A stretch of DNA of 64,000 bases from Protoeuglena noctilucae (taxonomy: Eukaryota). Location of the stretch: NCBI GenBank assembly GCA_958009085.1, contig OY253671.1:930001-994000 (forward strand). The letters are read 5' to 3'. Within the stretch, counting starts at the first letter, position 1. Every line of letters starts with the position of its first letter. Of this stretch, positions 3,978 through 21,204 are shown one piece after another. Position numbers and translations under genes: made by a program. Under the pieces are notes generated by a model that worked only from the letters and a program-made list of their open reading frames with translations, did not search any database and had not been told where the DNA came from.

Positions 3978-6821
3978 CTAGGGTCGGCTGGTGGCTGCGG
4001 ATGCCGCCGCTTTCACACGACGATCCATGAGCTCCTCGAGCCCCTCAGACGCACTCGTGCGCAGCACGTCCTCGTGTGCGAGCGCTGCGCCCATCACACC
4101 GCCTCCCCCAGAACCCCCTGCAGCCCCTGCCGTGGCCCCCGCAGCGTCCTCCGCAGGTCCCTCTTGGGGAGCATCTGACTCGCCCATCCCCTCCACATCC
4201 TCGTCGCTTGCATAGTCCTCCTCCGCCTCACTGCGACCCTCGTCACCCGCCTCTGCCTCCTCTTGCCCCTCTCGCTCAGCGTACCCACGCCCGTCATGCA
4301 CGCCGACGGCGTCGTCGCCTTTGCCCACCAATGCCGGCCCTCGCGTGTCGCCCTGGGGCTGAGACTGGCCCTGAGACCGGCCCCGAGAACCCAGGAGGTA
4401 GCCGCTGCTGCCGTCGTGCACCCGCCCCTCCTTGACCAGCGCCCCGGAGCTCTGCCTCGCCCGGCCCCACGTGCCGCTCCCATCGGCAAACGAAGCCTCC
4501 GAGGGGGCATGGGCGCCCGGGCTCGCCCGGCCCCGGCCCCCCAGGCTGCCCTCGCTGCTCCGGCGGTCCATGCGTTCCCGGAAGGAGGGCCCCTGCAGGG
4601 CCGACCCCTGCCTGGCCCGCCACCCCGCCCCTGGCTCTTCGTCGTAGTCCCCGTACTCCTCCTCCGCCCCCGCCGCCCCATCATCGTCGTTCTGGAGCAC
4701 CACGCCCTCGTCCAGGCCACCGCTGCGGTCCCGGGCATTGTCCTCGCCCCGGCTGCGGCGCACGTACTCCAGTTGGGCAAAGGAGGGGGCCGGCGGAGGC
4801 ACGGCGGGAGGCCCTGCGTGGGGACGAGGCACTGGAGCTGGTCACAATGGCCTGGCTGTGAAGAGGGCCCATGAAAAGGTGCGCTGTCGGCTGCATACGA
4901 GGGAACTCTCACCAGGCGTATAGGCGCCCTCATCGCCGTCCCCCATGCCTGGCAGGCGGGGCGAGATGGCAGGGTCGGGTGCCAGGTCCCCCGACACCTC
5001 GCCCCTCACGACATGGGTCGTGTAAGGGGACTCGGAGGACTGCCGCGTGAGGCTGGGACCGGGCAGCAGGCCCCAGTTGGGGTCCTCAAGGCCATGCAGC
5101 CCGCGGGACTTGCCGCGGGAGAACTGCGGACAAGACCAGGGTTCTACCGCATGACATGCAACCAGGCGGGGCCGGTTTGGGACGGGAGCCAACGCAACGC
5201 TCGTGCGAGCTCAGGCAACAATGCTCCCTCGCCTTTGCCGCCGTGATGTCTGTCTCCTCGTCGTCGACCTGGCTGCCCTCCCCGTACGACGCGGACGTGC
5301 CGTTGGCGCCGAAGATGGCACGCACCTCGTTGGTGCGCTGCGAGCGCTTGCGGCGCTCGACGCCGATCTCTGCCTTCCTCTGCGGGGCATCAAAGGGCAG
5401 GTGGGCGACGTGCAGCGGGCCACGGCGCATCTCCGTAACGCAGTGCCGCGAGCAGGGATGCTGCCCGCACCTGGGCCTCGCGCTTGTTCTTGTCTTCCTC
5501 CTCCATGCTCGCCAAGAGCTCGCGCTGCTTGTCGGCGTCGATGGCCGGCCGGAAGACCTCGCGCACCACCTGCCCGTACGCCTGTCGCCGCTTGATGCGG
5601 GCCAGCTTCTCCTGCCTCTCGCGCTCCTCCTCCTCCTGCCTCCGCCGGGCCTCGTCCTCCAGCCTCTTGGCGAACTTGCTCTTGTACTGCACCCCTATGG
5701 ACGCGACGCTCCCCGAGACGGACGTCTGCGCGGCCCGCGCCTTCTCCTCTCGCTCCTTCTCACGCTGCACCTTCTGCTCGGCCTTGCGCAGCAGATACTG
5801 CTGCTCGTGCGCCTGCGTGAGTCACCAAAAGACCGATGAGTCGAGACCCTACTCCTGGCAGCATGCAGACATCTGCAACGCCTGTGGGCCGTGGTCAGCG
5901 AGCCCAGCCACGCTGCCGCGAGGCGCGTCGCACCTGCACCATCTCCCACGAGCGGACCCGCTCCTCGAAGCGGCTGGGGCTCGTCTTGCTGTGGCCGTCA
6001 CTGTCTCGCGCCCGACGCTCCGCTGCGCGCTGCTTGATCCGCCACTCCATCAGCCGCTTGCGGTCTTCCGCGTTGCCCGCCAGCTGCCGCTCCCTCTCGG
6101 CCTTGCGCTCCTCGATCTGGGCCATGCGCTGCGCCATCTCCTCCCTCCGCCGCGCGTCTCTCTCAGACGCCTTCTCTCGCAGACGGTTCTCCCTCGCAGC
6201 GAGCGCCATCTCCAGCTGCTGCAGCCGACTCTGCTCCGCCACCTCCCGCTCGGCCCGACGCTTGTCCATCTCGAGCCTCAGCGCCGCGTTACGGCGCACC
6301 GCCGTCCGGTGGTCAAAGCTCGACGCCCAGTTCGCTGCTGCAGAGGCCAGGGAGCCCCCGCCGCGCCTGACCGCCTCGCCGTCGACGTCAAGGACGGACC
6401 GGACCGGCACAACGAACCCACCCGGCGAGTTTGACGAGCCGGCCGGGGACGTCTCCGGTGGCACGATGTGCCGGACGGGTCTGAGTCGCACAAAGACTGT
6501 GAGGAATGCGATGGAGCGCGGGCTAGAGGACGCATGGCGACGCGCAGGCGCAACAGGTGTGGCCTCACCGCACGTCGCTGATGACCGCCCGCCTCGGCGC
6601 ACCCTTGGTGCCATTCTTGACGGGAGGGAGGTCTTTGAGCTCCTTTTTCGCTGCTGGTTCCGCGTACGAACTGCAGCGGCGGCCAGGTTGCAACGCGGGT
6701 TTGGCAAGGTCTCGCGCAGGGCAAGGGTCTCCTGGTGGCTCCGCGGCCGGACTGCTCACCTCGTGACAACCACGCCGTCATAGGATGCCTCCTGTGACAT
6801 TGTGGGGATTTCCGGAGCCAT
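3978..6821 (-). CDS. Hypothetical coiled-coil protein with acidic low-complexity C-terminus, about 7 exons
   Basis: ATG at 6821. Exons join with GT/GC-AG sites into a long E/R/K-rich helical region (LEMDKRRAEREVAEQ...; YKSKFAKRLEDEARRRQEEEERE...YGQVVREVFRPAID). Stop at 3978. Family not recognised. Confidence 0.65.
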
Positions 6822-7555
6822 TTTATGCTGACTTCGGGGCCCTAAAATGCGGAAACAGTGAAGGTCATGAGCCGCGGAACCCGCCCAGCCACTGCGTCCA
6901 GACAACTGCACTGCGTGTAAAGACAAGCAAGTAGGTAAGAAGAACGGGCTTACATTCCACTCCGCTGGGCTGGAAAGATCTGTTAGGGCTGCCTGCATGC
7001 ACGAGACGGTGCATGCGTCCCAGGACGTCCGGGGCGTATCCAGGGCATGCGGAACCGACCTGGAGGCTCGAGAGCTGTTGTGGTTTCGTCCGCGGCAGCT
7101 GACACACACGTGCGTGGCCTGGGGACGTGGCGCACTAGGCACGAGGTCTATGCTCGCAGAGTTCATTCAGCAAAGATGCTTAGGATATATCGGTGCAAGC
7201 AGCGGGTGCCGTGCTGCAGTTCTTGCTCGCACAGACCTGACAGGGGCGCGCGCCGTAAGTCTCAGTCTGTCGCCCGCTTCCGGTCCTGGGCCGGCGTCCC
7301 ACGCGGTATTCTTCGCACCTCAACCAAAACGAATATGCCCGCGTGCCGGCGCGCGGGAGCCTTTATCTTGCGGATGCACAGCCTGTAATGGGATGTGCGC
7401 GTGCACAATGCATGCTCGTGACAACGCATACGTAAACGGGCGGCTTAGCGAGGACGTGGTGCCTTGACAGGTGACAGCGCGCAGTGACGGGGGACTGCCA
7501 GGCTCGCGCTCAGCTCGAGAGCAAAGAGGAGGGTTGCGTGGTGCAGGTGGCCAAA

Positions 7556-10500
7556 ATGGGGCCCATGCGCGACGTCCTCAAACTGGGGACGGACGTAGCA
7601 GGAGAGGATGGCCACGATGTGGGCCTCCTGGGCCGTCAGCTCTTCCCCAACCAGCCCGAATGGCTTGCCTTTGGCAATCCGCTGACCAAAATTGCCGACG
7701 GTGGCGCCTCTACAATCATCGGAACGCTGGGAGACCCCGCTCCGGACCTGAAGACGCGCATGGCGCACAAGTGGGTGGTCGTGGCGTGCGACACGTCCTC
7801 GGACGGGCGCGTCGTCGCGGCCCTCGTAAGGTACGTCACTCTCTGCCGAAAGCTGCCGCTGCGGCTCGCGTCCTCGTCCCAGCTCACCGCCAAAGTCGCT
7901 CAATCTCTGGCAGGGAGACCGCTCCATTCCGGCCGGGAGCCTCCCTCCGCCAGCAGCTGGTCATTTGCGACTCGTGGGCCGGGTCCGCCAACCGCACGGT
8001 GCTTCTCCGCAATGAGACAGAGATATCGGGCCTCTCGCTCTCGTTCGCGGGCGACTGGTTCGTGGGCGTGATTCACAAGGGCGATCCCGAGGACGTGAAG
8101 GCCTGGAGCAGTCGGGTGAGCGCCACGGGCGAGCCCATGACATGGCTTGGTACGGAGACGTGGGGTCGTAAACACCTGCTTTGCGCCCCTTTGATTCTGT
8201 CGCAGTCGGGTGACGAGCTCGGCATGGCCATCCAGGACGCGATGGGGAGCGTGTTTGAGGAGCTGGCTAAGGAAGGCTTTGACGCCGTCGTGCACAGCGT
8301 GGCGTGGTCGCCCGTCGAGGATCGCATGGTCGTGGCGCTCCTCTGCCTGGACACCGAGGGCGTCCGGAAGATCGCCCTGGTGTCCGGTGGGTGTCTGCCC
8401 CATGCCTTGCGCCTGTCGCTGCCAGCAGCCAGCCGACAGAGCCTCTCCTCTGACGAACGCGCCCCGTCCCGTCGCAGTCGTCGTGCACCAGGCGTGGGCG
8501 CGACCGCGGGTGCGGGGCCAGGACCGCCGGGCTTCCCAGTTCGACGGAGACATGGGCAGCAACCGCGACCTCCGCCGCGATCCCCCTGGGGAGTCAGCGG
8601 CCAAGCCCGTGCGCGCCGCAACGATGCGGAGGCCCACGGCCGCCGGGGACGCGACTCCGAAGCGGAGCAAGGTCGTGCCGGAGGGCGGGGACCCCGGATG
8701 GGAGCTGGACTGGGTGCAGGAGTGCGCGGTGGTGTCGGGAGGGGAGCCGCCTCAGCCGGACGACATCGACTTCAAGGTGAGGACCGGCACATACGTCAAT
8801 GCCTGTTCCGAGTGGCACCGTGAATCGCAACGTGACGTAGCCTTGTTCTGTACACGCAGGTCCAGTTCAACGGCAAGGGCACGCTCTTGGCCACGAGCAA
8901 GGGCTCCATCATCGATGCGGCCTCGGGGGGCGAGCTCTACGACCTGGCTCTGCGTGGCCGCAACTCCATCACGTCGATCAACCACTGGCGAGAGGGCCTC
9001 ATCGCCGAGCAGGAGATCTGCTTCAGCCCTTGCGGCCGCTTCTTCTTGCAGACCGGCACGGCCGGCTACGGAGGTGACGGGGCTCTCGCTTGCGTGCGGG
9101 CTCCCTCGCGAGGCCCTTGTCGCTGCGCTGTTGACCCTGGCTCCTCCCTCCACTGTCACAGTTGCTGCCGGCACGTTCGCGCTCGTGACAGTGTGGGACC
9201 TGGAGGCCGTGGCTGGGCCGGAGAACATGGGGGCGATTCAAATCCACCATGACGACTGGCTGGTCCTGACGCGGGCGCGGGGTCGGGCGCTGGTGACGAG
9301 CAAGGGCGCCGTAATTTTGCTGGTCACGACCGACACCGGCACGCACGTGATGGTGTGGGGCATGGAGACGCTCAAGCGGCGCATCGAATTCAAGGACGTC
9401 GGGTCCACCATCCTCCCCACCAACTCCTTCCCTCTCCCGGAGCAGCCCGTGATGACGCCCGACGGCGTGCCCTGCGCCTACTTGCACCAAAACGACCAGG
9501 TGCAGGGACCATGGGAACAGGAAGCAGCGATGAATGACACGCGCGGCCTTTGCAGATGACATCTTGGCTTTACGGCCTATCTGCTTCAGATAGATGACGT
9601 CGTGACCTGTCAGCTGTGTCTGTGGTCGTGATTGGTGTCCCCTCGCATCGCCGCAGCCCGTCGTGGAGATATGGTCGCGGGACGGGAGGGCCCTCCGCAC
9701 GAGCCTGTGGCGGCTGGACTGGCTGACGGGCCTGTGGAGCAAGGTCGCGACGCGCGTGGTGGCGAGTGCATCTGGCGGCGGCTCCGACGGCGCGCAAGGC
9801 ACGGGCGAGGACAAGCCCGGCGCATCCGCGACGGAGCATTCCCTCAAAGCAAGCGCGCCTGGCGCGATTCGCAGCCGCCTCCGCCCCGAGGCGCCCACGG
9901 CGGCCGAGGCGCTCCAGATAGACCCAGAGAGGGCCCACCGCGCCATCACCCGGGTGGTCAGCGTGGGCAAGAGTCGCTTCGCGGTGTTCTGCGCCGGCGG
10001 CTCCGACCTGGGCCTCGCCTTCGTCACGAGAGGCGTGCCCCTGGTCGAGGTCTTGGGAAGGGATGCTGTCCACGCCGCCATCCTCAAGTCCACGCTCGCC
10101 ATGACGGTCCTGGCAGGTGCATGTTGCTTGAGACCTGCTCCGAGGTGCCAGCGCCGCTCTGTCTGGACATCTTGTGTTGCAGGCGGCATGCGACAGCCCC
10201 GGCACCGGCACCGCTTGCCCGCAGTGACGCTCGAGCGTCCCCCGATCGACACGCCGTCGTCGGCCAAGGTCAACAAGAAGAAGAGCCAGCCGCAGGGGCA
10301 GAGCGGACAGAGGAAGGCTCTGTTCGGGTCCCGGCGGCCCGGGCGCACTGCAGAGCGGGTGCTGCACCCTTCGGGGTCGGGGTCTGGCGACCACAGCGAG
10401 GGCGCGTCCCTGGTGAAGCAGAGCACGGCGGGGTCCTCGCTGTCGGGTCCGAGCACGATCAGCGCGCTCCACTTCCCGGGGCTGGCGCAGTCCTCGAGCA

Positions 10501-13500
10501 TCGGCCACAGCAGCGACTCGGCCGGGGCGCAGATCTACAAGATCCGCGGGAGGGACTGCGACGCCCTCCTGCGCGCCACGGGGTTCGAGGTCAGTCAAAG
10601 TCATCGGGGCTGTCATGAGGGCGTGCGAAGTGACTGGGGTGGTTACTGAGGCGTGCAAAGTCAGTCACTAAGCGCATCGCTTCCCGGTCGTCACGTCCGA
10701 GCTATCCAATATACTGAGCCTTCCACACCTCGCTTCCCCCCGCAGGTGGTCGTGGTGGACCTGCTGATGCGCAGCAAGCGCACGATCTTCTGCGTCGCTG
10801 ACCTGGACCCGGCAGCCGAGGCCATCCTGGCCACGGAGCCCTCCAGCGGCGCAGGGAAGGCCGGGGCGGGCAAGGCGGACGCCGGGAAGGCCAGCCGGGA
10901 GCCCAGCGCCTGGAATACGACGAGTGGGGAGACGGCAGCTGGCTCCTCGGCATCCACGTCGACTGCCCCTGCGTCCCAAGGGCCCACCGCCCGGGCGGCC
11001 CCCTCGAACGCGGCCGGGCCCTACAAGTGAGCGCGCGCGAGCGCAGCACGTCTGCTCGAACGGGGCACAATGACAGCGTCTCCTTGCGCTTATAATAGCC
11101 ACCTGCCATGGGTGCTTGGGGGCCGCTTCAAATGCCCGCCTCGTCTCTGCGATGCGCGCAGCTTCCCGTACGTTCCCTACACGCTCGTGCCCGACGGCAA
11201 GTTCGGCGCATTCAAGCCGGGTCATACCCTGGGCCGCGTCGTTGAAGTGGGCATGTCCGCGGACGCCTCGATGCTGGCCATCACCCACTGGCTGCCCCAC
11301 GTGGTCGCGGCGGGCTACGAGGACGAGGTCGTTAACCTGACCATCGAGGTGAGACAGATGGGAAGCACGGCGTACCCTAGTCAGCCCACGCACGCGATGC
11401 GCGTCCTTGCGGGCACGACACGAGAGACACCATAACTCAGCGAGCTGCCCCAAAGATGACTAATTTAATCACACATCTATTCTCCTCGCTTCCCAGACGG
11501 TCTTCGTGCGCACGGAGGACGGCGGGTACCGCCCCACGGCCAGCGGCGCCCCGGACCTGCGCCGACTGAACGTGCGGGCGTCCCAGCCCTTTGAGATCGA
11601 AGTGCAGCCGCGGAAGGGGCCGACCACGCTGTCGGGGAAGGTCTTCGACCCGGCCAAGACCCGGCTGGCCGTGTTTGGCGTCAGCAGCCTGATCCACAAC
11701 GTCGTCGACTTTGAGTCCCGGCAGGACGTCCCGTGGGTGCAGCTGCAGGTGTTCGACGTGTCAGGAGCGGCTGCGGATGTCCTCGACCTCTCCACGGGCG
11801 TTGCAGAGACAGTACCCGGGGCCACCGGCCTCAAGCGTATGCGTGCCCTGCACACACGCATACGCGCGGGCGCGTCGCACAACATATCGGCGGCCTTCAA
11901 CGTCGACTCGACCCTCCTCGTCATCGCCGGGTACGACTGGGTCGAGACGGTCAGGCGAGCGGGGCGGCGCACGGCCGCCTGGCTGCGACAGCTCCCGACG
12001 GCAGCCGCCGTCCTTTCTCTGCGTCTCTGCCAGCCAGGATTGGCATTTCGTTGATCCGCGCCGTGACGCTTCCTCATTCCCGTCCCCGCAGCCTCGACAC
12101 GTGGGCGGCGGAGCGGCGGTTCCACATCGACGCCCTCATCCTGCACCCCGTGGACCAGACCATGTGCCCCAGGGGGCTGCCCCAGGTCTTCGCCTATCGA
12201 AAGAAGGACATCACCGCTCAGATGATCGAGAGGGGCGCGCCGTGGAAGGTCCTGCCGCCGCGGACCGTCGAGGAGCGGCCCCAGGCGCTGGCGCGGGTGA
12301 CGGCTGAGTCGGGCGTCGGGTCGGTGCCAGACTCCGTGCCGGAGTCGTGCCCGCCGTCCCCGCGGAGGGATGGCGCCGGGGGCCCGGCGGAGGCGTGGCC
12401 GGACCCGGCGCTGTCGTCGCGGGCGTCCCAGGAAGACAGTGAGCCGGCGGGCGTGGCGCGTCACGCCCTGGCCGCGCCTACGGCCCTGGCCCCGGCCTTG
12501 CACGCCCGCATGGGCCCGCGGCTCACGTGGGCGGAGAGCGAGGACGCCGACGAGGAAAGGGTCGCCGGTGAGAATCGAAGACCCGACCTGCGCCGCCTTG
12601 GAGGGCGTGACTGCTGAGTTGACGACAGATTGATGCCGAGTATCCACCCATGCATGGCTTGCTGCTGGGCAACCTGGACGGCATGCCTTGACTGGGATGC
12701 GCGTGTGCTCATCGGTGCTGAGATGCCACCTGTCGCAGGGCGGGGCGATGGGGAGAGAGCGGCTCGACTGACGGACCCCCCAGTGATGGGGAGCAGGCAA
12801 GGCGACGAGGCGACAGGGCAGGGAGGCAAGTCTTCTGAGGGCCAGAGGACTGGGCTTAGAGAGCAGAGCAATGACGCCGAAGATCCATCAACGGGACCTC
12901 AGCGTACCGCCACTGTCGTCCCCAACGGCGGTGCCGGTGTCCCCACCGCCGACCACGAGGGCCGCCAGGCGTCGCGTGTGCCCTCTCGGCAGGCGTCTGC
13001 AACAGCTGGGCCACTTGCCAAGGGGCCTCCTGGTCCAGCCCCAATCGTTCGTCGCGACAGAGGCGCGTCGGGCACCCTCCCGCCACTGCCGGGCTCCCTC
13101 AGCGACCGCGCTCTGCTGTTAGACGGTGCCATCGACTCGGCGGGCCCCATGGCTGAGTCTGCTCTCCCTGCGCTCTCTGCGCGTGAGCCCTCAGGCACAG
13201 TGACCCCGTCGGACCGGCGTGGGGCGCTCGGCTCGGCTGGGGAGTCGCTGCTGGGCGACAGGGGGGGCCCCGAGGACGCAGAAGAGTACCTGGGGAGCAC
13301 GTGGGTGGACTCCGACGGGGCCGGGAGCAAGGCCGGCTCGACGCGGGGCCGCAACGCCGGGGCACGGCCGCGGGAGGGGACCGCGCTGTCCGTGTCAATG
13401 TCGGTCGCGCCGCGCCGCACGGCGCACCACTCGGCGCCGGGCATTGCGAACGGCCGGGGCTCGGCGGTGGCTGACGGAGACGGCGCGGGCGCAGCGGGGG

Positions 13501-16500
13501 CGCGCGCGCAGCCGCAGGGCGACCCTGCAGGCGACGGGCGGTCGCCGCAGCCGCGCACTGCGGACGCGCAACAAGGCGCGGAGCCTGCCAGGGGCCCCGG
13601 AGGCGAGGCTCCCCAGGATCACGTGGCCCGCGCGGGCACTGCGGTGAAGTGGCGGGGCGTGGACGGCGAGGAGGACCGGTCAAGGGAGGTGGCCACGTGG
13701 CTGGTGTACCAGATCGACCCAGCGACGGGGACGGCGACGTTCGTGGCCCCGGCGCCCTCGGCGTCTTCGGAGGACTTTCTGCGGGTGAGGCAGGGGCGGG
13801 GGTAACGAGCATGACTGGGGGGGTACAGATGAGCGAGACGGGAACAGCGGACGCGCACTGGCGCTGGGTAGGCTCTCTGGCTCTCTGGCAGAGCTGAGGT
13901 CTCTTTACACTCCTTGGTGCAACTAATCACAATGCCGTGACATGCCTGGGACTAACTGCACGCAGATGCAAGGCAGGGGAGATGCCGTTTTCCAGGCGCG
14001 GGCGCTGGCGTCCGAGCGGGCACCTCGCCCTCACGTGGAAGTGCCTCCCGTGGGCGTCCAGGCACGTGGGCCACTGTCTTTGCCTCCCCACTGCCTTTGT
14101 CACCTCGCTGCCTGACACCTCGCTGTGCCTGCCACGCAGCACCTTGCGTGCAACAAGCACTCTCTGATCGTCTGCTCCTCATTCCCTGTCACCCGTGTGC
14201 TCGTAGGTGCTGTCTTCCAATTCGGTGGCAGTGTATCGGGTTAAAAGCACCAACTACACCATCCGGCTGGGGGACAACAACCACAACGACCCGGACATAA
14301 GGTGGGCGGCAGCAGCTGCGGCTGCTGTTACACACACGCAGCGAGTCGCCCTGACTTGCACCGGTAGACCTCCGCTCATGGCCTCGCCACGACTGGTCGC
14401 ATAGGTGATTGACCCTGGACCCTCAAAGCCCCCTAGTGTCTCTTTCTCCACAGGGACGTCACGTCTCGCAATTCCTTCGCCATCCTGACCCGGGCCGCGC
14501 CCCAGGACTACTCGGGATGGGACGCGGAGGAGGTCGTGGGCAACATTGAGCTCCCCTTCAACCGCCTTACGTCCCACGCCTTTCCCCCGGTCCTCACCTA
14601 TGACGGCGTGGCGCCCAGCCGCACGACCGTCGACTGGCTCATCCTGCAGGGCGGGTCAGGTGAGTGCAACATGCCAGAGTTAGGGTGCGCTAGTCCCATT
14701 CGCTGCAGCGCTAGCGGAGGAGTGGAATGATGGGTGCAAGTTGCGAGGCGCGTACGTGCTGGTGACGCGTTTTGTCACACCTGGGTCGTCATTCCATCCT
14801 CGCAGGCGCCATTGCCATCTACTCCCATGCCATCGTGCTCGTCAGCGCGGCGTGCGCGGTGGGGCACTTCATGCCGGGCGCGTGGGTGGACGCCACGCAA
14901 TGGATGTACCGCATTTGGGACGATCAGAGGATGAAGCTCACCGCCAGGCTGGGCCGCCAGGTGAGATGCGCTCGTCAAGACCACTACCGTTTGCGCAATG
15001 CGCCCACCTGTCCATAGCAGCAGCCGTGTCCACCGCAACCCCATAGACTGCGACCAGCTCCCACCGTGAGCCCCTCGTGCTTGCTGCAACACCCTCATGA
15101 TACACTGCCCACCATAATTCTCGACCCCTCGCCCCGTCTTGCAGTGGAACAAGCTCTTCCAGCGATCCTTCCTCATTCTGCTGAACCGCACGCGGCGCGC
15201 GGCGCTGCAGGGGCTCTTCTACTACGCCCCGGAGATGCTCCTGGCCCGCAGCACATGCGGGGCACCCTTCGTCTCGCGGGTCATGGAGTACACGAGAGAG
15301 GTGCGAGATTCCTCAACGGCGACGCGGGAATCCTTATCGGTGCAGTCTGCATCGCGCGAGCCGCAGCCGCGCACCTAAGCGGGCATTGGCCCTTCGTCAT
15401 GCACCCGCAGGCGGTGGACGTCTTTGACCCTTACGAGCTCGACCCGAAGCGGCGCTTCCGCGTCGCGCAACCGACGCTCATCCTGCTAAAAGAGATCTTC
15501 GAGGGCCTGCAGCTGTGGAAGAAGTTCATGCACAAGCGCCTCAAGCTCATGCCGGGCGCGGGGTGGAAGGCCCTCGTGGTCGACTCCATGTCGCCCCTGT
15601 GAGTGCGCGCGGTGCCATGGCAACGCTCCGTCGATGCAAGGAACCCATTGCTCTTATCACTCTACCTGCTTCTGTCATTCGTAATCACTCCATCTCTCCA
15701 TCTTTCCATTGTTCCCATCCTTCGTATCGCCCCCACCTCTCCCGATCAATCCATCGCTCTGATCGCTCTCGCCGCTGCTCTCCGCAGGGCTTGCGTCGAC
15801 AACTTGCTGGAGGGCATGGGCGCGGAGAATGCGCTGCAGCTGGCGCAGTGCCTGGTCCGGTGCATGGAGCAGCGCATCCTGGTGGACGACGGCAGCATGC
15901 ACCGCACGCTGCAGCGGGTGATGCACACGCTCCTCCGGGACCCCACCGACACGGTCCTGCGCTACCTGGACATGCTGGTCGTCAAGAGGCCCGAGACGGT
16001 GCCCGCCAGCGCCCTGATGAAGGACCTCAACCTGGCCACGCGCGCCGAACAGAACACCAGGGTCACGCTCGAGAGCTACACGAACGTGATGACGCCCCTG
16101 ACGCAGCCCATGGTCATTCCCGTCCAGGGCAAGACGCCCTCGGACAGGGACCACCGCGTCGGCATCGAGATTCCCCTGCACCGGCGCCTGTGGCTGGCCC
16201 TCAAGCTTATCGCGCCCATCATGGCCTACGACCCTCAGCGGGGAGAGACGCGGCTCCGGAGGGCGCTGTGCTCCAAGTCGAGGGCCCTCCGCATCATCTT
16301 CGACCCCATGGAGTTCCGGAGGCTCCTGGCATCAGGTGAGGGTGACGTGGATGTTGCTGTGACGGTGCGATGATGGTGCTGTGATGGTGGTGCTGGACGG
16401 TGCTGTGATTGTGTGAGGGTGGCGCGGACAGTGCTACGATACGGCACCGCCCCTTGTGAGTGCATGAACCCCCCAGCATTGCCCTTCTCAGTGCGTCGCT

Positions 16501-18590
16501 AACCTAACCCTGCAGGATTACACCTCTGTCCCTTCGATGGCCGCAGAGACGGACTGGTCGATGGATGACCTGATCGTGTTCGAGCAGGCGGCCAAGGGCC
16601 ACGCAGCCCACCGCTCCTCCTGGGGCCGGCAGACGGTCCAGGTCCTGCAGTGCGTCATATCGGACATCGTAGCACCCACCCACGACCACAAGCACCCCTC
16701 CTGGTTCCAGGTGAGCAGGCCAGGTGGCAGAGCAGTAGCAGTATCACAACCACCGCGCAGTCTCTCTGCAGCACTGCGCGTTGCCTGAGCCCTGCCTTGG
16801 ATGCAACACCTCCCCTCTCGCCACGCGCATGACGCCCGCCCATCACGCACCCCCGCTGTCGCTCACAGGAGATCAACCGCTCGGGCACCCACATCGAGGT
16901 CTACGACATGCCCATCGTGCAGTTCCTCATCCAGGCCAAGTGGGAGGCGTACGGAGCGCGCATGGCCTTCTACGAGGGTGCACTGCACATCGTGATGGTG
17001 GCTGCGTACATGACCTACGGCGGCATGCTCCCCACGGCCATCTACGTGCCTGCCCCAGGTGCGCCAGCGCTTCGTGGCGTTTGCGTGCACCTGACACAGC
17101 GCCCGGCCACACCGGCCGCGGCACTGAAGCAGCCCTCATAGCCATGGCGACTGCCTGGGATGCCGTCGGCTCCGTTGTGCCCCAGTGCCCCCGCCGCGAC
17201 CCCACCGCAGCCGCCACTCCGCATAGCGCCTCTACCCTCCTCCCATCACCACCGCATCGCCCTCGCCCGCGCAGGCCAGGCGGAGCCCTCCCTGAGCACC
17301 CGCTCCGGCAAGTCGTCGGCCGCGACGGCCTTCATCGCGTGTGTCCTGCTGATCGGCGGCCGCCTCCTCCGGCGCAAGGTCCGCCAGTTCAAATGGTTCG
17401 GCGCATCGCGACTCATCCGCTCCCGCTGGGACATCAACGACCTCCTCGTCCTCTCCCTCCTCATCGCCACCGTCGTCCTGCACTTCCAGTTCCTCCTCCA
17501 GCCGTCCCTGAAGGCCGCTCGCGGCCTCAGCGCCGTCGTGGCCCTGGAGATCCTCACCCTGTGGTTCGGCCTGCTCCAGTACGGCCTCAGCATGGACCGC
17601 ACCGGGCCCCTCATCCGAATGATCTTCGAGATCACCATCAACACCCGCTTCTTCATCCTCGTCATCGCCGGCATGATCGCCGGGTTCTCATTCGCCTTCT
17701 ACCTCCTCTTCGCCGAGACCGCCGCCCAGTCACCGAGGGGCAGTGACGTCGGGGACAACTTCGCCACCCTGCCCCGCTCCCTGGTCACCGTCGTGTCCAT
17801 GGCCGTGGGCGGCTTCGACCAGCTCATTTTCTGGGAGACGCCCCTTGCGGCCCTTGCTGTCGTCCTCTTCATCGCCTTCATCGCCCTGGTGTTGATCCTC
17901 CTACTCAACCTCCTCATCGCCATCATGTCCGACACCTACGACAAGGTGAAGCAGTCCGAGCGACTCCACCTCCTCCGCGAGCGCGCCATGCTCATCGAAG
18001 AGCTCGAGGCCTCCATGGGCCGCTGCCAGCGCCAGGACCTCGCAAGACGCCTCCCGCCCAACCTGGCGGTGTTCGTGCCATCCACGGGGCCCCAGCGGAA
18101 GCGCGACAACGACGAGAGGCTCGCGGCCATCGAGGAAATGGTGGGCAAGATCTGGCGGCGCCTGCGACGCATCGAGCGGGGCGCGGCGGGGGCGGCGGGC
18201 CACGGGGGTGGCGGCCATGAGGGCGAGGGTGACGGTGAGGGAGAGGGCGAGGAGGACGACGGGGACGAGGAGGGCCAGCCGGGGCGCACGCTGGCGGCGG
18301 AGCTGGACCCGGCGGTGGTCAGCCAGCTGCTGATGCTGTACAACATGGTGCGAGGCGGAGGGGCCAGCGGGGGCGGGGGCGGGGGCGTGGGCCACGCAGC
18401 GGCGGGGATCGCCCACGCGGCCCCTCACCCTCGCCCCGCCAAGTCGACGGTGGAAGGGTCCGGGGGCCACGCTCACGGCCACGGGCATACCGGGTGGGAG
18501 CGCCTGGCCCATGTGCACCACGTCAGCAGCGGCGAGTCCGGCGCGCACGCTGCGCAGGGACCGTCGCATGGGCAGGCACCGCCCTCGTGA
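7556..18590 (+). CDS. Very large TRP-type cation channel with N-terminal WD40-like beta-propeller region (predicted single gene, >20 exons)
   Basis: N-terminal exons have WD-like blades (HSVAWSPVEDRMVV, ICFSPCGRFF, LVTVWDLE, GMSADASMLAI, AAFNVDSTLLVI). Intron 12568-12738 joins in frame to the downstream exons. The C-terminus has PIVQFLIQAKWEAYG (pre-S1), six hydrophobic helices, pore DNFATLPRSLVTV, S6 LLLNLLIAIMSDTYDKV and a TRP-box-like ERAMLIEELE. The channel part is confident; the single-gene join is inferred. Confidence 0.7.
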
Positions 18591-19042
18591 CGGCGCTGTG
18601 ATGAGTTGCGAGGGGAGTGCGAAGCGCGCTGGTCTCTCTTTTCCACCCTCCCTGCATGTGCATGTCGTCACCCAACCCTTGGGACACAGCAACGCGCGCC
18701 CCAGCTGTGCAGCGCGATATCTCTCGTGATTTGTATGCGATTAGACAAACAGCAGGACGTTGTTGGCTGTATGCGGCTCTCTGTGCCAGCCTTGCTCGTG
18801 ACATGACAACGTGATGCAGTGACCTCTTCACCCCTCGTTTACTTGTTCCCATGTTACCGTGAATGAACGTTGCAGCCATGACTGAATGCACGCATGTGCT
18901 CTGCCCTGGCCTGCCCCAGCCCTACCAACGCTTGAACGACACGACCCTTTCAACCACGACGAGCGCGTATGCAGGGCCCAGGCAAGCCACGAACGCGGCC
19001 TGCATCGCCCCATCACTACCGCTGCATCGTCACGACTCCTCG

Positions 19043-21204
19043 TCACTTCTCTCTCCGCTTCTTGTTCTTCTTCCGCCCTTCACCGTCACCGGCACCGCCT
19101 GACCCCTCCTCAGCCTTGGCCTCCTTGCCCCGCTCCCGCTTCCCTCCTTTCGCCCTCTTCTCTTTCTTCTCTTTCTTGTCTTTCCGCTTTGGAGATGACT
19201 CGTCCCCACCCACCGCCCGCTCGCCCTCCACGCCCTCACGCTTGCGGCCACCCGACCCCTTCCCGGCGCCCCTACCGTCCTTCTCCACAACCACGGCCGC
19301 CAGGCTGTCCTGGCTGCCACTGGGTGCCTCGCCAGCCTGCACGGGTACAATGCTTGTGTGCCAATCGCAAAGCCCTATCTGCAGCCCATCGCAGCATCCG
19401 CTACTGCCAGCCTTCTCGCCCATGCACCCCACACCGAATCACATCCCAGCATCCGCACGCCCCAGCACCCGCCCACGCTCACCTCGCCCTCCGCTCCGTC
19501 TTCGTCCCCAAACGTGCGCTTGCTTCCCGCAAAGTCCTTGCCCAGCGTCGTCGGTCGCTCGGCGTGGCTCGCGCCCAGCCCCATCTTTCCCTCCTTCTTC
19601 CCGCGTGCATGGTTGTGCGCAAACATGAAGACCCGCTCTTGGTCGTCCTCCGTGAAGCCCTTCTTCGATTCCTGCGAACAATAATCAGTATCAATACTCA
19701 TACACCTTCCCTTCCTGCGTCGAACATTGCGAAGCTGCACCCTCAACGCCCTCAGCACAAAGCACGTCGCAAAGCCTCGCTGCGGCCGGCTCACCAGGAT
19801 CTCGTCTCGCGCGGAGCCCACGAACCCGACGCTGACGAAGACCTTGCGGCCCCACCACTGCGGGTCAGCCTCGGGCGTCGTGGGCGGCAGGGTGCCCTCG
19901 TACGCGACGCGCTTGACCGTGACCGTCACGCGCTGCCGCCCGCCACCGCCGCCCGCAGCCTCCCCACCGTCACCGCCCTCCGTGCGCCCTGTGAAGGCGC
20001 CCACGATCCCCGCGAACCGCCCCCAGTGCGAGTGAGCGCCCCCGGTCCCCCCGTCCTCTGCGGGTGCGGGTGCCGCGTCCGCATCCACCTCGTCTGCCGC
20101 AGCATCTTTCGCCTTCTTGCTACGCTTCTTGGACTTGCGATCCTTCCGGCTGTCCCCGGCCCCGTCCTCCGCCCCTCCCTCCTCTCGCCCCGGCCGTCCT
20201 TTGGGACCCTCGTCCACCGCTCGCGACTTCGATTCCTTCGACCTCTCCTTTTTCTTCGCCTTCTTCTCCTTCTTGGACTTTGACGTCTCCCCTGACGCGG
20301 CCCCCTGCCCCGCCTGCGTGCAATGTACCACCATGCGGTCCCTCTGCGTCAGTTCGGCCCCGCCCTGCCTTGTACCTCCGCGCTGCCGCGGCCGCGTCAC
20401 TCACCCCGTCCGCTTCCACGGGACTCAGTCCCAGCTTGGCCCTCGCCTCCCGAGCCATCTGCTCCTCTTGCTCCCTGCACGCAAGGCGTGGCCCACACTC
20501 ACATGCCCGTCGCTGACCCCTTTGCGCGGTCCGCGCCCGCAGAAAACGCGCCAGCCAGGTGTCCATCGTCGCCCCGCACCTGATACGGGCCATCTTGCCC
20601 TCCCTGCCGCCCCATCTGCCCCACTTCTCCTGCCCCAGCTCGTTTAGGATGCGCAGCTCCTCCCGCGATGCAGACGCCGCCAGGGTCCCGTCGCGGTGGC
20701 GCGCGGCGCCCGCCGACGGCGCAGAGCTTTCGTCGCTATCCGAGCTCGACGAATCTGCGGGAACAATGTCGCGAAGTGTCACAAATCCAATCGCACGTGC
20801 TGCAAACTCGCCCCGCCGCCGCCGCAACGGCCGCCGTGGCACGCGGGCACCTCCTCCGTCTTCGCGATTATGCACCGCAGATATCTTGGCAGCGATGGAG
20901 TTGAACGCGCCCTCCCACCACTTGGAGTCCCAACGGTACCCCGTGGCGCCGCCAATGCCGAGGTTGTCCTCCTTCTTCTTCACGCGGATGTGCTCCGTCA
21001 TCCCGTCCTCGTTCTTTCCGAGGCCCTTCCCGTCGGACCAGCCCATCTGCGAAACCAAGCGGGTGGGTTCGGCCGCCGGCAGGAAGACGCGTGGGCTGGC
21101 GAGCCAGGCCCGGCGGTCACCTTCTGCATCAGCCGCTTGCCATAGCCACTGTAGTGCTGCCGCACATGGCCGTTGCCCTCCACGAACCCCGGTGGCAGCT
21201 TCAT
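19043..21204 (-). CDS. G-patch domain protein (GPATCH4/PinX1-like, nucleolar, Lys-rich)
   Basis: YGKRLMQK|MGWSDGKGLGKNEDGMTEHIRVKKKEDNLGIG is a G-patch, followed by WDSKWWEGAFN, KKE-rich tracts and a GFTEDDQERVF...KMGLG motif. Confidence 0.88.

Follow-up and report, generated by a model that had tools for sequence, protein, structure and literature searches.

We analyzed a window of 64,000 nucleotides (nt) of Protoeuglena noctilucae DNA (contig OY253671.1 of assembly GCA_958009085.1, positions 930,001 to 994,000), whose overall GC content is about 66%; coordinates below are those of this window. Sequence comparison suggests that its plus strand probably encodes a divergent member of TRPW, the transient receptor potential (TRP) channels with N-terminal WD40 repeats. 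We consider it likely that the front half and the channel belong to a single fused open reading frame (ORF), whichever fold the front half adopts, and we lean slightly towards one fused TRPW-type gene with a front half of the propeller type. This gene would run from 7471 to 18953 in 23 exons and encode a TRPW-type channel of about 2,596 amino acids (aa). In the predicted protein, a cytoplasmic front half of very divergent WD40-like beta-propeller blades would be followed by a disordered linker of about 350 aa, a pre-S1 region of about 500 aa, a six-helix TRP pore domain, a TRP-helix-like segment and a low-complexity tail.

The last exon encodes a TRP-type channel domain

The ORF piece 17142-18587 matched the Pfam family Ion_trans with an E-value of 1.9e-15 (57 bits, cut-off 25). 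Pfam searches of this locus were run on 34 ORF pieces covering 7468-18587, and folding on one exon. PKD_channel was also matched (4.4e-6), over profile positions 157-225 of 225 only. Because this match is limited to S5-S6, it falls short of the full-length PKD_channel match, large S1-S2 loop included, that defines Polycystin/TRPP. No Ank family match was found in the 34 pieces at E<=0.1, in agreement with the first-pass annotation of this DNA, which had seen no ankyrin repeats; the N-terminal ankyrin repeats that define TRPA, TRPV and TRPN were thus not detected.

Among solved structures, 110 chains were matched at E<=0.01, and TRP channels lead the best 60 of these 110. The top match is insect Inactive (Inactive/Nanchung, 9nvn; 3.3e-11), followed by CrTRP1 of Chlamydomonas (6pw4; 1.1e-7) and then by TRPV1/3/6, Nanchung, TRPA1 and PKD2L1. 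The alignments with solved TRPs (E 3.3e-11 to 3e-5) cover S3/S4, the pore and S6 into the TRP-helix (TRP-box) region. Past S6, the sequence aligns with Inactive over its TRP-box region and with the conserved '..F.K.RA..I.ELE' of the relatives described below; the tryptophan is absent. Other patterns of the family are kept: 'KW..Y' in S1, 'TGPL.RMI', 'G.FD' in the pore, 'LLNLLIAIM.D.Y..V' in S6 and 'RA..I.ELE' after it. The 'YLHVL.P' and 'W.G' that the relatives conserve after the TRP helix are not kept; by eye, a charged, helical-looking stretch, a candidate for a C-terminal coiled coil, follows the TRP-helix region. Together, these comparisons solidly identify a six-helix channel domain of TRP type within the voltage-gated-like superfamily.

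The closest relatives carry N-terminal WD40 repeats

The channel exon yielded 1,875 matches at E<=1e-3 among 1.84 billion representatives, and no relative in a JGI metagenome scan. We scanned with Pfam the 33 best-ranked of the 48 listed matches of at least 850 aa. A WD40 or propeller match lies N-terminal of Ion_trans in 26 of these 33, two of which also have ankyrin repeats; one has ankyrin repeats only, and the remaining six have long N-termini in which Pfam detects neither WD40 nor ankyrin. The WD40-bearing relatives score 77-128 bits, against 46 bits at best for the solved TRPV/TRPA/TRPP-type chains named above, which bear ankyrin repeats or other N-terminal domains. Judged by bit scores and Pfam scans, and not by a rooted tree with outgroups, TRPW1 or TRP11, the channel domain groups with WD40-bearing channels and not with other TRP families.

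Among named relatives, green-algal channels with both WD40 and Ion_trans match the channel domain best (116-118 bits, 33% identity). They are similar in size and order of parts, and several have only one or two WD40 repeats that Pfam can detect, but outside the transmembrane domain they share no detectable similarity with the protein of the window. Even for the closest WD40-bearing match (P0008), identity over the channel domain reaches only 38%. Relatives include transcript-derived proteins of Tetraselmis astigmatica (2,014 and 2,085 aa), those of Ostreobium quekettii (1,501-1,764 aa) and one of Volvox africanus (2,625 aa); Caulerpa, Bryopsis and Triparma provide other named members with WD40 and Ion_trans, and so do the choanoflagellates Choanoeca (1,746 aa, 82.9 bits) and Hartaetosiga (1,322 aa, 77 bits).

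This WD40-TRP architecture was named TRPW in a preprint of June 2026 (bioRxiv 10.64898/2026.06.15.732144). The preprint reports TRPW in chlorophyte algae, assigns Chlamydomonas TRP11 to the TRPW clade, and describes both the activation of Salpingoeca rosetta TRPW1 by bacterial lipids and its structure by cryo-electron microscopy, in which a TRP helix and a coiled coil accompany a propeller of seven blades. Since the architecture is already known, the locus would be a divergent member of TRPW and not a new class. The first-pass annotation had suggested a poorly characterised algal TRP class in which propellers replace the ankyrins. Its idea of kinship stands, as channels with N-terminal WD40 are the closest relatives and, for the family, propellers do occur instead of, or besides, ankyrins; its novelty does not, because the class already has a name. 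The propeller fold of the present front half, which has no Pfam hit, is putative.

Compared with TRPW1, the predicted protein shares the TRP-type transmembrane domain, a segment at the position of the TRP helix and a cytoplasmic N-terminal region of great length. In TRPW1 this region has a single, clear WD40 propeller of seven blades, whereas the front half here spans about 1,220 aa, is not recognized by Pfam and is interrupted by low-complexity stretches. The protein also differs from TRPW1 in the disordered linker between front half and pre-S1 region. It has no ankyrin repeats.

RNA contigs support the exon chain

On the plus strand between 7.5 and 18.6 kb, third-position GC is strongly periodic in blocks that change frame, which is what is expected of a multi-exon gene. 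We modeled the gene as an exon chain by dynamic programming, with codon usage trained on RNA-confirmed exons, and afterwards fixed it to the 12567|12739 junction. With both unconfirmed introns (12568-12738 and 13785-13995) removed, the model runs from ATG 7556, which is preceded by an in-frame stop inside the first exon, to TGA 18590 and encodes 2,596 aa, in line with the more than 2,000 aa proposed in the first-pass annotation. RNA confirms 12 of its 22 introns; the other 10 are predicted only. GC content at third codon positions (GC3) is 0.77-0.95 per exon across the model, apart from one low stretch, 12739-13180.

The RNA evidence consists of contigs from four metatranscriptome runs of sea samples (X1 to X4), each of which has 0.29-0.57 of the words sampled from the stretch. 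Fifteen contig joints are listed, 11 of them on the plus strand; 11 more joints, 8 loose ends and 128 pieces lie outside this list. Contig depth and uncovered stretches (for example, the low X1 depth in the bin 13772-14288) were not used as evidence. A twelfth intron comes from a loose end of 17 letters at 11348, which matches 11497 and gives the join 11348->11497. The 12 confirmed introns are 110-216 nt long with a GC content of 0.56-0.72 and, after adjusting for shared bases, are GT-AG except for two. These two are the GC-AG introns 11955-12091 and 14062-14206 (donors GCGAGC and GCACGT), a high share for so small a sample.

Contig joints confirm all eight introns between the nine exons of 13996-17058 and the intron that follows them. 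With the confirmed introns removed, 14207-18590 is a single open frame to its TGA, and the transcript ends at a poly(A) site at 18953. The chain of in-frame exons that the first-pass annotation had traced to a TRP-like channel of six transmembrane helices is real. TGTAA, the poly(A) signal of Chlamydomonas, is not enriched in the window (18 occurrences, 15.3 expected), and neither 18953 nor 12617 has a copy nearby. Protein collections contain no annotated protein of the locus, only P0006, a prokaryote-style ORF call of 428 aa on a strain variant, which is the best match of the last exon.

A candidate intron would bypass the stop codon of the front half

The first-pass annotation proposed that splicing carries the frame of the front half past the TGA at 12617 and so creates one gene of about 11 kb. 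Each of the signals that it named is exact in the sequence. Position 12567 ends an exon with 1 codon base, GTGAG begins at 12568 and CGCAG ends at 12738, and removal of these 171 nt keeps frame 0, reading ..EERVAG|RGDGER.. across the junction. The donor ccgGTGAGA and the acceptor TCGCAGgg resemble the 12 confirmed introns in signals, length and GC content, the last being 0.61 between them and 0.75 and 0.74 in the flanking exons. GC3 drops right after 12567, from 148/159 codons (0.93) in the preceding exon to 9/16 codons from donor to TGA (binomial P=5e-5), so the codon signature ends at the donor and not at the TGA. Moreover, an X1 contig of 429 nt (record 3) aligns from exactly 12738 to 13134 and has 32 bases to spare. 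In this contig 12739 is preceded by a G, which is the base that 12567 would supply, and this one-base overlap at 12738 is what a 12567|12739 join would give. The start of this contig at 12738 and the end of the codon bias at the 12568 donor favour splicing. The TGA lies only 47 nt past the donor, a position at which automatic annotation pipelines would divide one gene in two.

One X2 contig, the sole listed contig to cross 12568-12738 on this sequence, runs unspliced over 12080-12802. Not one of the 15 listed joints comes from X2, and a second X2 contig also reads through the confirmed intron 15599-15787; we therefore regard it as unspliced material and do not count it against the intron.

A number of observations weigh against a single gene. 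Neither 12567|12739 nor 13784|13996 is among the 15 joints listed, and for this reason the claim of one gene of about 11 kb, for which in-phase splice signals, codon bias and the contig at 12738 speak, is likely rather than established. Contigs of X1 and X3 extend 31 nt beyond the donor to 12598 and then enter sequence that the window lacks. Because the contig at 7471 carries a leader that is likewise missing from the window, the 32 bases left over at 12738 could be such a leader and not the end of an upstream exon. GC3 over 12739-13180 is 0.67 (98/147), which resembles non-coding sequence (0.63 in introns), and in-frame ATGs at 12786, 13149 and 13942 could begin a separate channel gene. Searches of protein collections with 12093-12566 (proteins of 278-2,000 aa) and with 12741-13133 (proteins of 72-230 aa) gave no match, which shows only that none is on record.

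The missing joints and the low GC3 would fit two separate genes, the leading alternative, which we consider unlikely. A gene for a beta-rich protein would end at TGA 12615-12617 (or, were the first intron the only real one, at TAA 13803-13805), and an independent TRP channel gene would start at ATG 12786, 13149 or 13942. In that case, the second gene would have a short leader exon spliced to the acceptor at 12738, possibly of the same kind as at 7471, where a leader of 35 letters absent from the window joins the AG acceptor 7470/7471; the spare stretch at 12738 is of similar length. The rise of GC3 just beyond ATG 13149 and the 7 of 33 long relatives without a WD40 Pfam match point in the same direction. 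However, a poly(A) site, a promoter and the first exon of the second gene would have to fit into the mere 120 nt from TGA 12617 to acceptor 12738, or, if the first gene ended at the TAA, into the 136 nt that separate 13805 from ATG 13942. Two genes would not readily account for the halt of the codon bias at GTGAG in place of the TGA, or for two junctions that are both in phase with strong signals. The base before 12739 is G, like 12567, whereas the visible part of the 7471 leader (maybe 30 of the 35 letters) ends in C. Finally, in an mRNA that contains 12739-13148 the first AUG of the long frame is 12786, so the stretch of low GC3 would be coding with two genes as well.

A single unit could also give two products. 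Regulated retention of intron 12568-12738 would yield a soluble front-half protein ending at TGA 12617, and its splicing the full channel; a dicistronic mRNA would be a variant of this arrangement. Both forms seem present in the RNA libraries, as unspliced contigs across the donor and as the contig that starts at the acceptor, and polycistronic mRNAs have been reported from green algae (PMC7896298). We nevertheless rate two products as highly improbable: unspliced contigs (X2) also cross confirmed introns and may be precursor RNA or DNA, a first frame of 1,236 codons would make leaky scanning to the second frame implausible, and no sign of regulation was seen.

The first part of the linker is open, present in RNA and poor in codon bias

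If front half and channel are one gene, they are joined by a linker. What is unusual about this locus is the disordered insert of about 350 aa and the missing codon bias of its first part. Frame 0 has no stop between 12739 and 13802. Its 147 codons over 12741-13181 contain 0 stops, compared with 1-4 in each of the five other frames; this is only modest evidence for coding, because 458 of 5,000 dinucleotide shuffles were equally open. The composition of 12741-13181, with more D/E and no C or W, is like that of a disordered protein segment and unlike translated junk. In-frame ATGs of the linker exon lie at 12786, 13149 and 13398, and GC3 climbs to 0.87 over 13181-13784, shortly beyond the second of them. 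An mRNA that contains 12739-13148 (X1 record 3) implies that translation starts at ATG 12786 at the latest. The low GC3 of 12739-13180 is the main unexplained point, and it does not separate one gene from two cleanly. The GC3 bias persists where the gene is of low complexity elsewhere, in exons 8478-8776 and 10746-11026 and in the C-terminal tail.

A single chain also requires intron 13785-13995, which the first-pass annotation did not mention, since the unspliced frame hits TAA 13803-13805. The 23 in-frame codons before the 13995 acceptor have an intron-like GC3 of 14/23.

The front half is coding and weakly WD40-like

The front half is clearly coding, as GC3 and three RNA-confirmed introns (11027-11161, 11349-11496 and 11955-12091) demonstrate; its other eight introns are predicted only. 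It is beta-rich, has several low-complexity inserts and is weakly WD40-like. Using a WD40-repeat hidden Markov model (HMM) built from canonical repeats of the relatives, we scored the front 1,220 aa at a summed 9.3 bits, compared with a maximum of 7.4 in 1,000 window-wise shuffles and 0.5 for the reversed sequence. The HMM matches three short, partial blade cores (residues 70-88, 173-187 and 357-366 of the gene model, -0.7 to 2.2 bits each), and the matched strings resemble the WD40 blade core 'GH..V..v.fSpDG'. Because 9.3 bits exceeds all 1,000 shuffles, the WD40-like impression recorded in the first-pass annotation has weak statistical backing.

Other searches did not recognize a propeller. 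A profile check of the kind that the first-pass annotation had advised, run on the 34 ORF pieces, found Ion_trans but no WD40 or propeller family of Pfam at E<=0.1. Comparison of the front half with the N-termini of the relatives by tblastn, phmmer and hhalign gave no significant similarity, and hhalign against a profile of the green-algal family gave a probability of at most 3.9%. Folding the RNA-bounded exon 11497-11952 alone with AlphaFold2 returned all strands at a predicted local distance difference test (pLDDT) score of 38, which is unusable as evidence. A language-model look-up of the same exon in the ESM Atlas led to unnamed clusters at 0.87, below the useful range.

Thus, a single fused gene whose front half has another beta-rich or mixed fold has to be considered; the protein would then be a TRP channel with a novel cytoplasmic domain and not a TRPW in the strict sense. 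The Pfam and hhalign results, the unnamed clusters and the three short, partial, low-scoring motif matches would all fit such a fold. We regard it as quite unlikely, since the summed signal stands above all the shuffles, the matched strings look like blade cores and 6 of the 33 long relatives likewise have no detectable WD40 or ankyrin, so that divergence is common in the family.

The same lack of kinship between the front half and the propellers of the relatives, together with a stretch at 12739-13180 that is open and present in RNA but has no codon bias, raises the decidedly improbable case of a young or remodelled fusion. A separate beta-propeller gene would have been joined to a channel gene, with the spacer turned into an exon and a new intron removing the old stop. 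Retention of intron 12568-12738 could then still give a free front-half protein.

A model for the proposed fused channel

For the slightly favoured fused TRPW-type gene, analogy with solved TRP channels and TRPW1 suggests a tetrameric cation channel that would probably be permeable to Ca2+ and probably have a sensory role, and whose propellers may lie in the cytoplasm as docking or regulatory surfaces. Chlamydomonas TRP11 is a ciliary mechanosensory channel. It is a green-algal TRP of the same proposed clade, which would suggest a sensory, possibly flagellar role here. TRPW has been proposed to be an ancient class of sensory channels linked to flagellar behaviour. If the fusion is real, the locus would add a very divergent algal TRPW to a family described only in 2026, and it would widen the family's range by a propeller region beyond Pfam recognition and by a long disordered insert between propeller and channel.

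Feature coordinates, leader, variants and flanking genes

Table 1 Features of the proposed gene, in window coordinates
Feature	Position	Strand	Basis
5' untranslated exon start (AG acceptor 7469-7470, exon from 7471)	7469..7555	+	RNA contig
Front half, start codon 7556, 12 exons, about 1,220 aa	7556..12567	+	GC3 0.79-0.93 per exon
Front-half exons 1-6	7556-7825, 7954-8115, 8206-8386, 8478-8776, 8860-9073, 9192-9499	+	Model
Front-half exons 7-12	9657-10116, 10225-10589, 10746-11026, 11162-11348, 11497-11954, 12092-12567	+	Model
Candidate intron, 171 nt, GTGAGA...TCGCAG, contains in-frame TGA 12615-12617	12568..12738	+	Phase, composition
Linker exon, 349 codons, frame 0	12739..13784	+	RNA contig contiguous over 12738-13134
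Second candidate intron, 211 nt, GTGAGG...TTTTCCAG	13785..13995	+	Phase fits, GC 0.60
Nine exons, pre-S1 cytoplasmic region and first transmembrane helix or helices	13996..17058	+	RNA joints, open frame
Pre-S1 exons	13996-14061, 14207-14301, 14454-14659, 14806-14960, 15145-15300	+	RNA joints
Pre-S1 exons, continued	15411-15598, 15788-16335, 16547-16710, 16869-17058	+	RNA joints
Last exon: remaining transmembrane helices, pore (..GGFD..), S6, TRP-helix-like segment, low-complexity tail	17275..18590	+	Pfam, alignments
Stop TGA	18588-18590	+	Open frame
3' untranslated region	18591..18953	+	X2 contig with 18 A's behind 18953 (poly(A) site)

Position 7471 comes directly after a pyrimidine-rich ...TTGACAG acceptor. 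In an X1 contig, the 35 letters ahead of it match nothing in the window, even with 3 mismatches. This absence implies a 5' exon more than 7.4 kb away (other introns are 110-216 nt), a leader added in trans or, possibly, an assembly chimera. A JGI metagenome scan with 24 nt of the leader found nothing.

At 8589, 12598, 12953, 13334, 17371 and 18176-18384, RNA contigs that agree with the window to at least 99% change abruptly to sequence that the window does not contain. The switches at 12953 and 13334 coincide with codon boundaries of frame 0, and the sequence beyond them has no stop; P0006 has the same kind of variant tail at 18384. These switches suggest variants, of strains or of paralogues, in which low-complexity parts have undergone large in-frame changes. 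We dropped 'introners' as an explanation of the loose ends, as the introns are not repeated elements within the window.

Genes on the minus strand flank the locus at 5500-6480 and 18931-20851, with minus-strand CT..AC joints at 5811-5933, 19335-19482, 19670-19794 and 20754-20851. The contigs of the downstream gene start at about 18931, which places the end of that gene within or right next to the 3' untranslated region of the channel gene.

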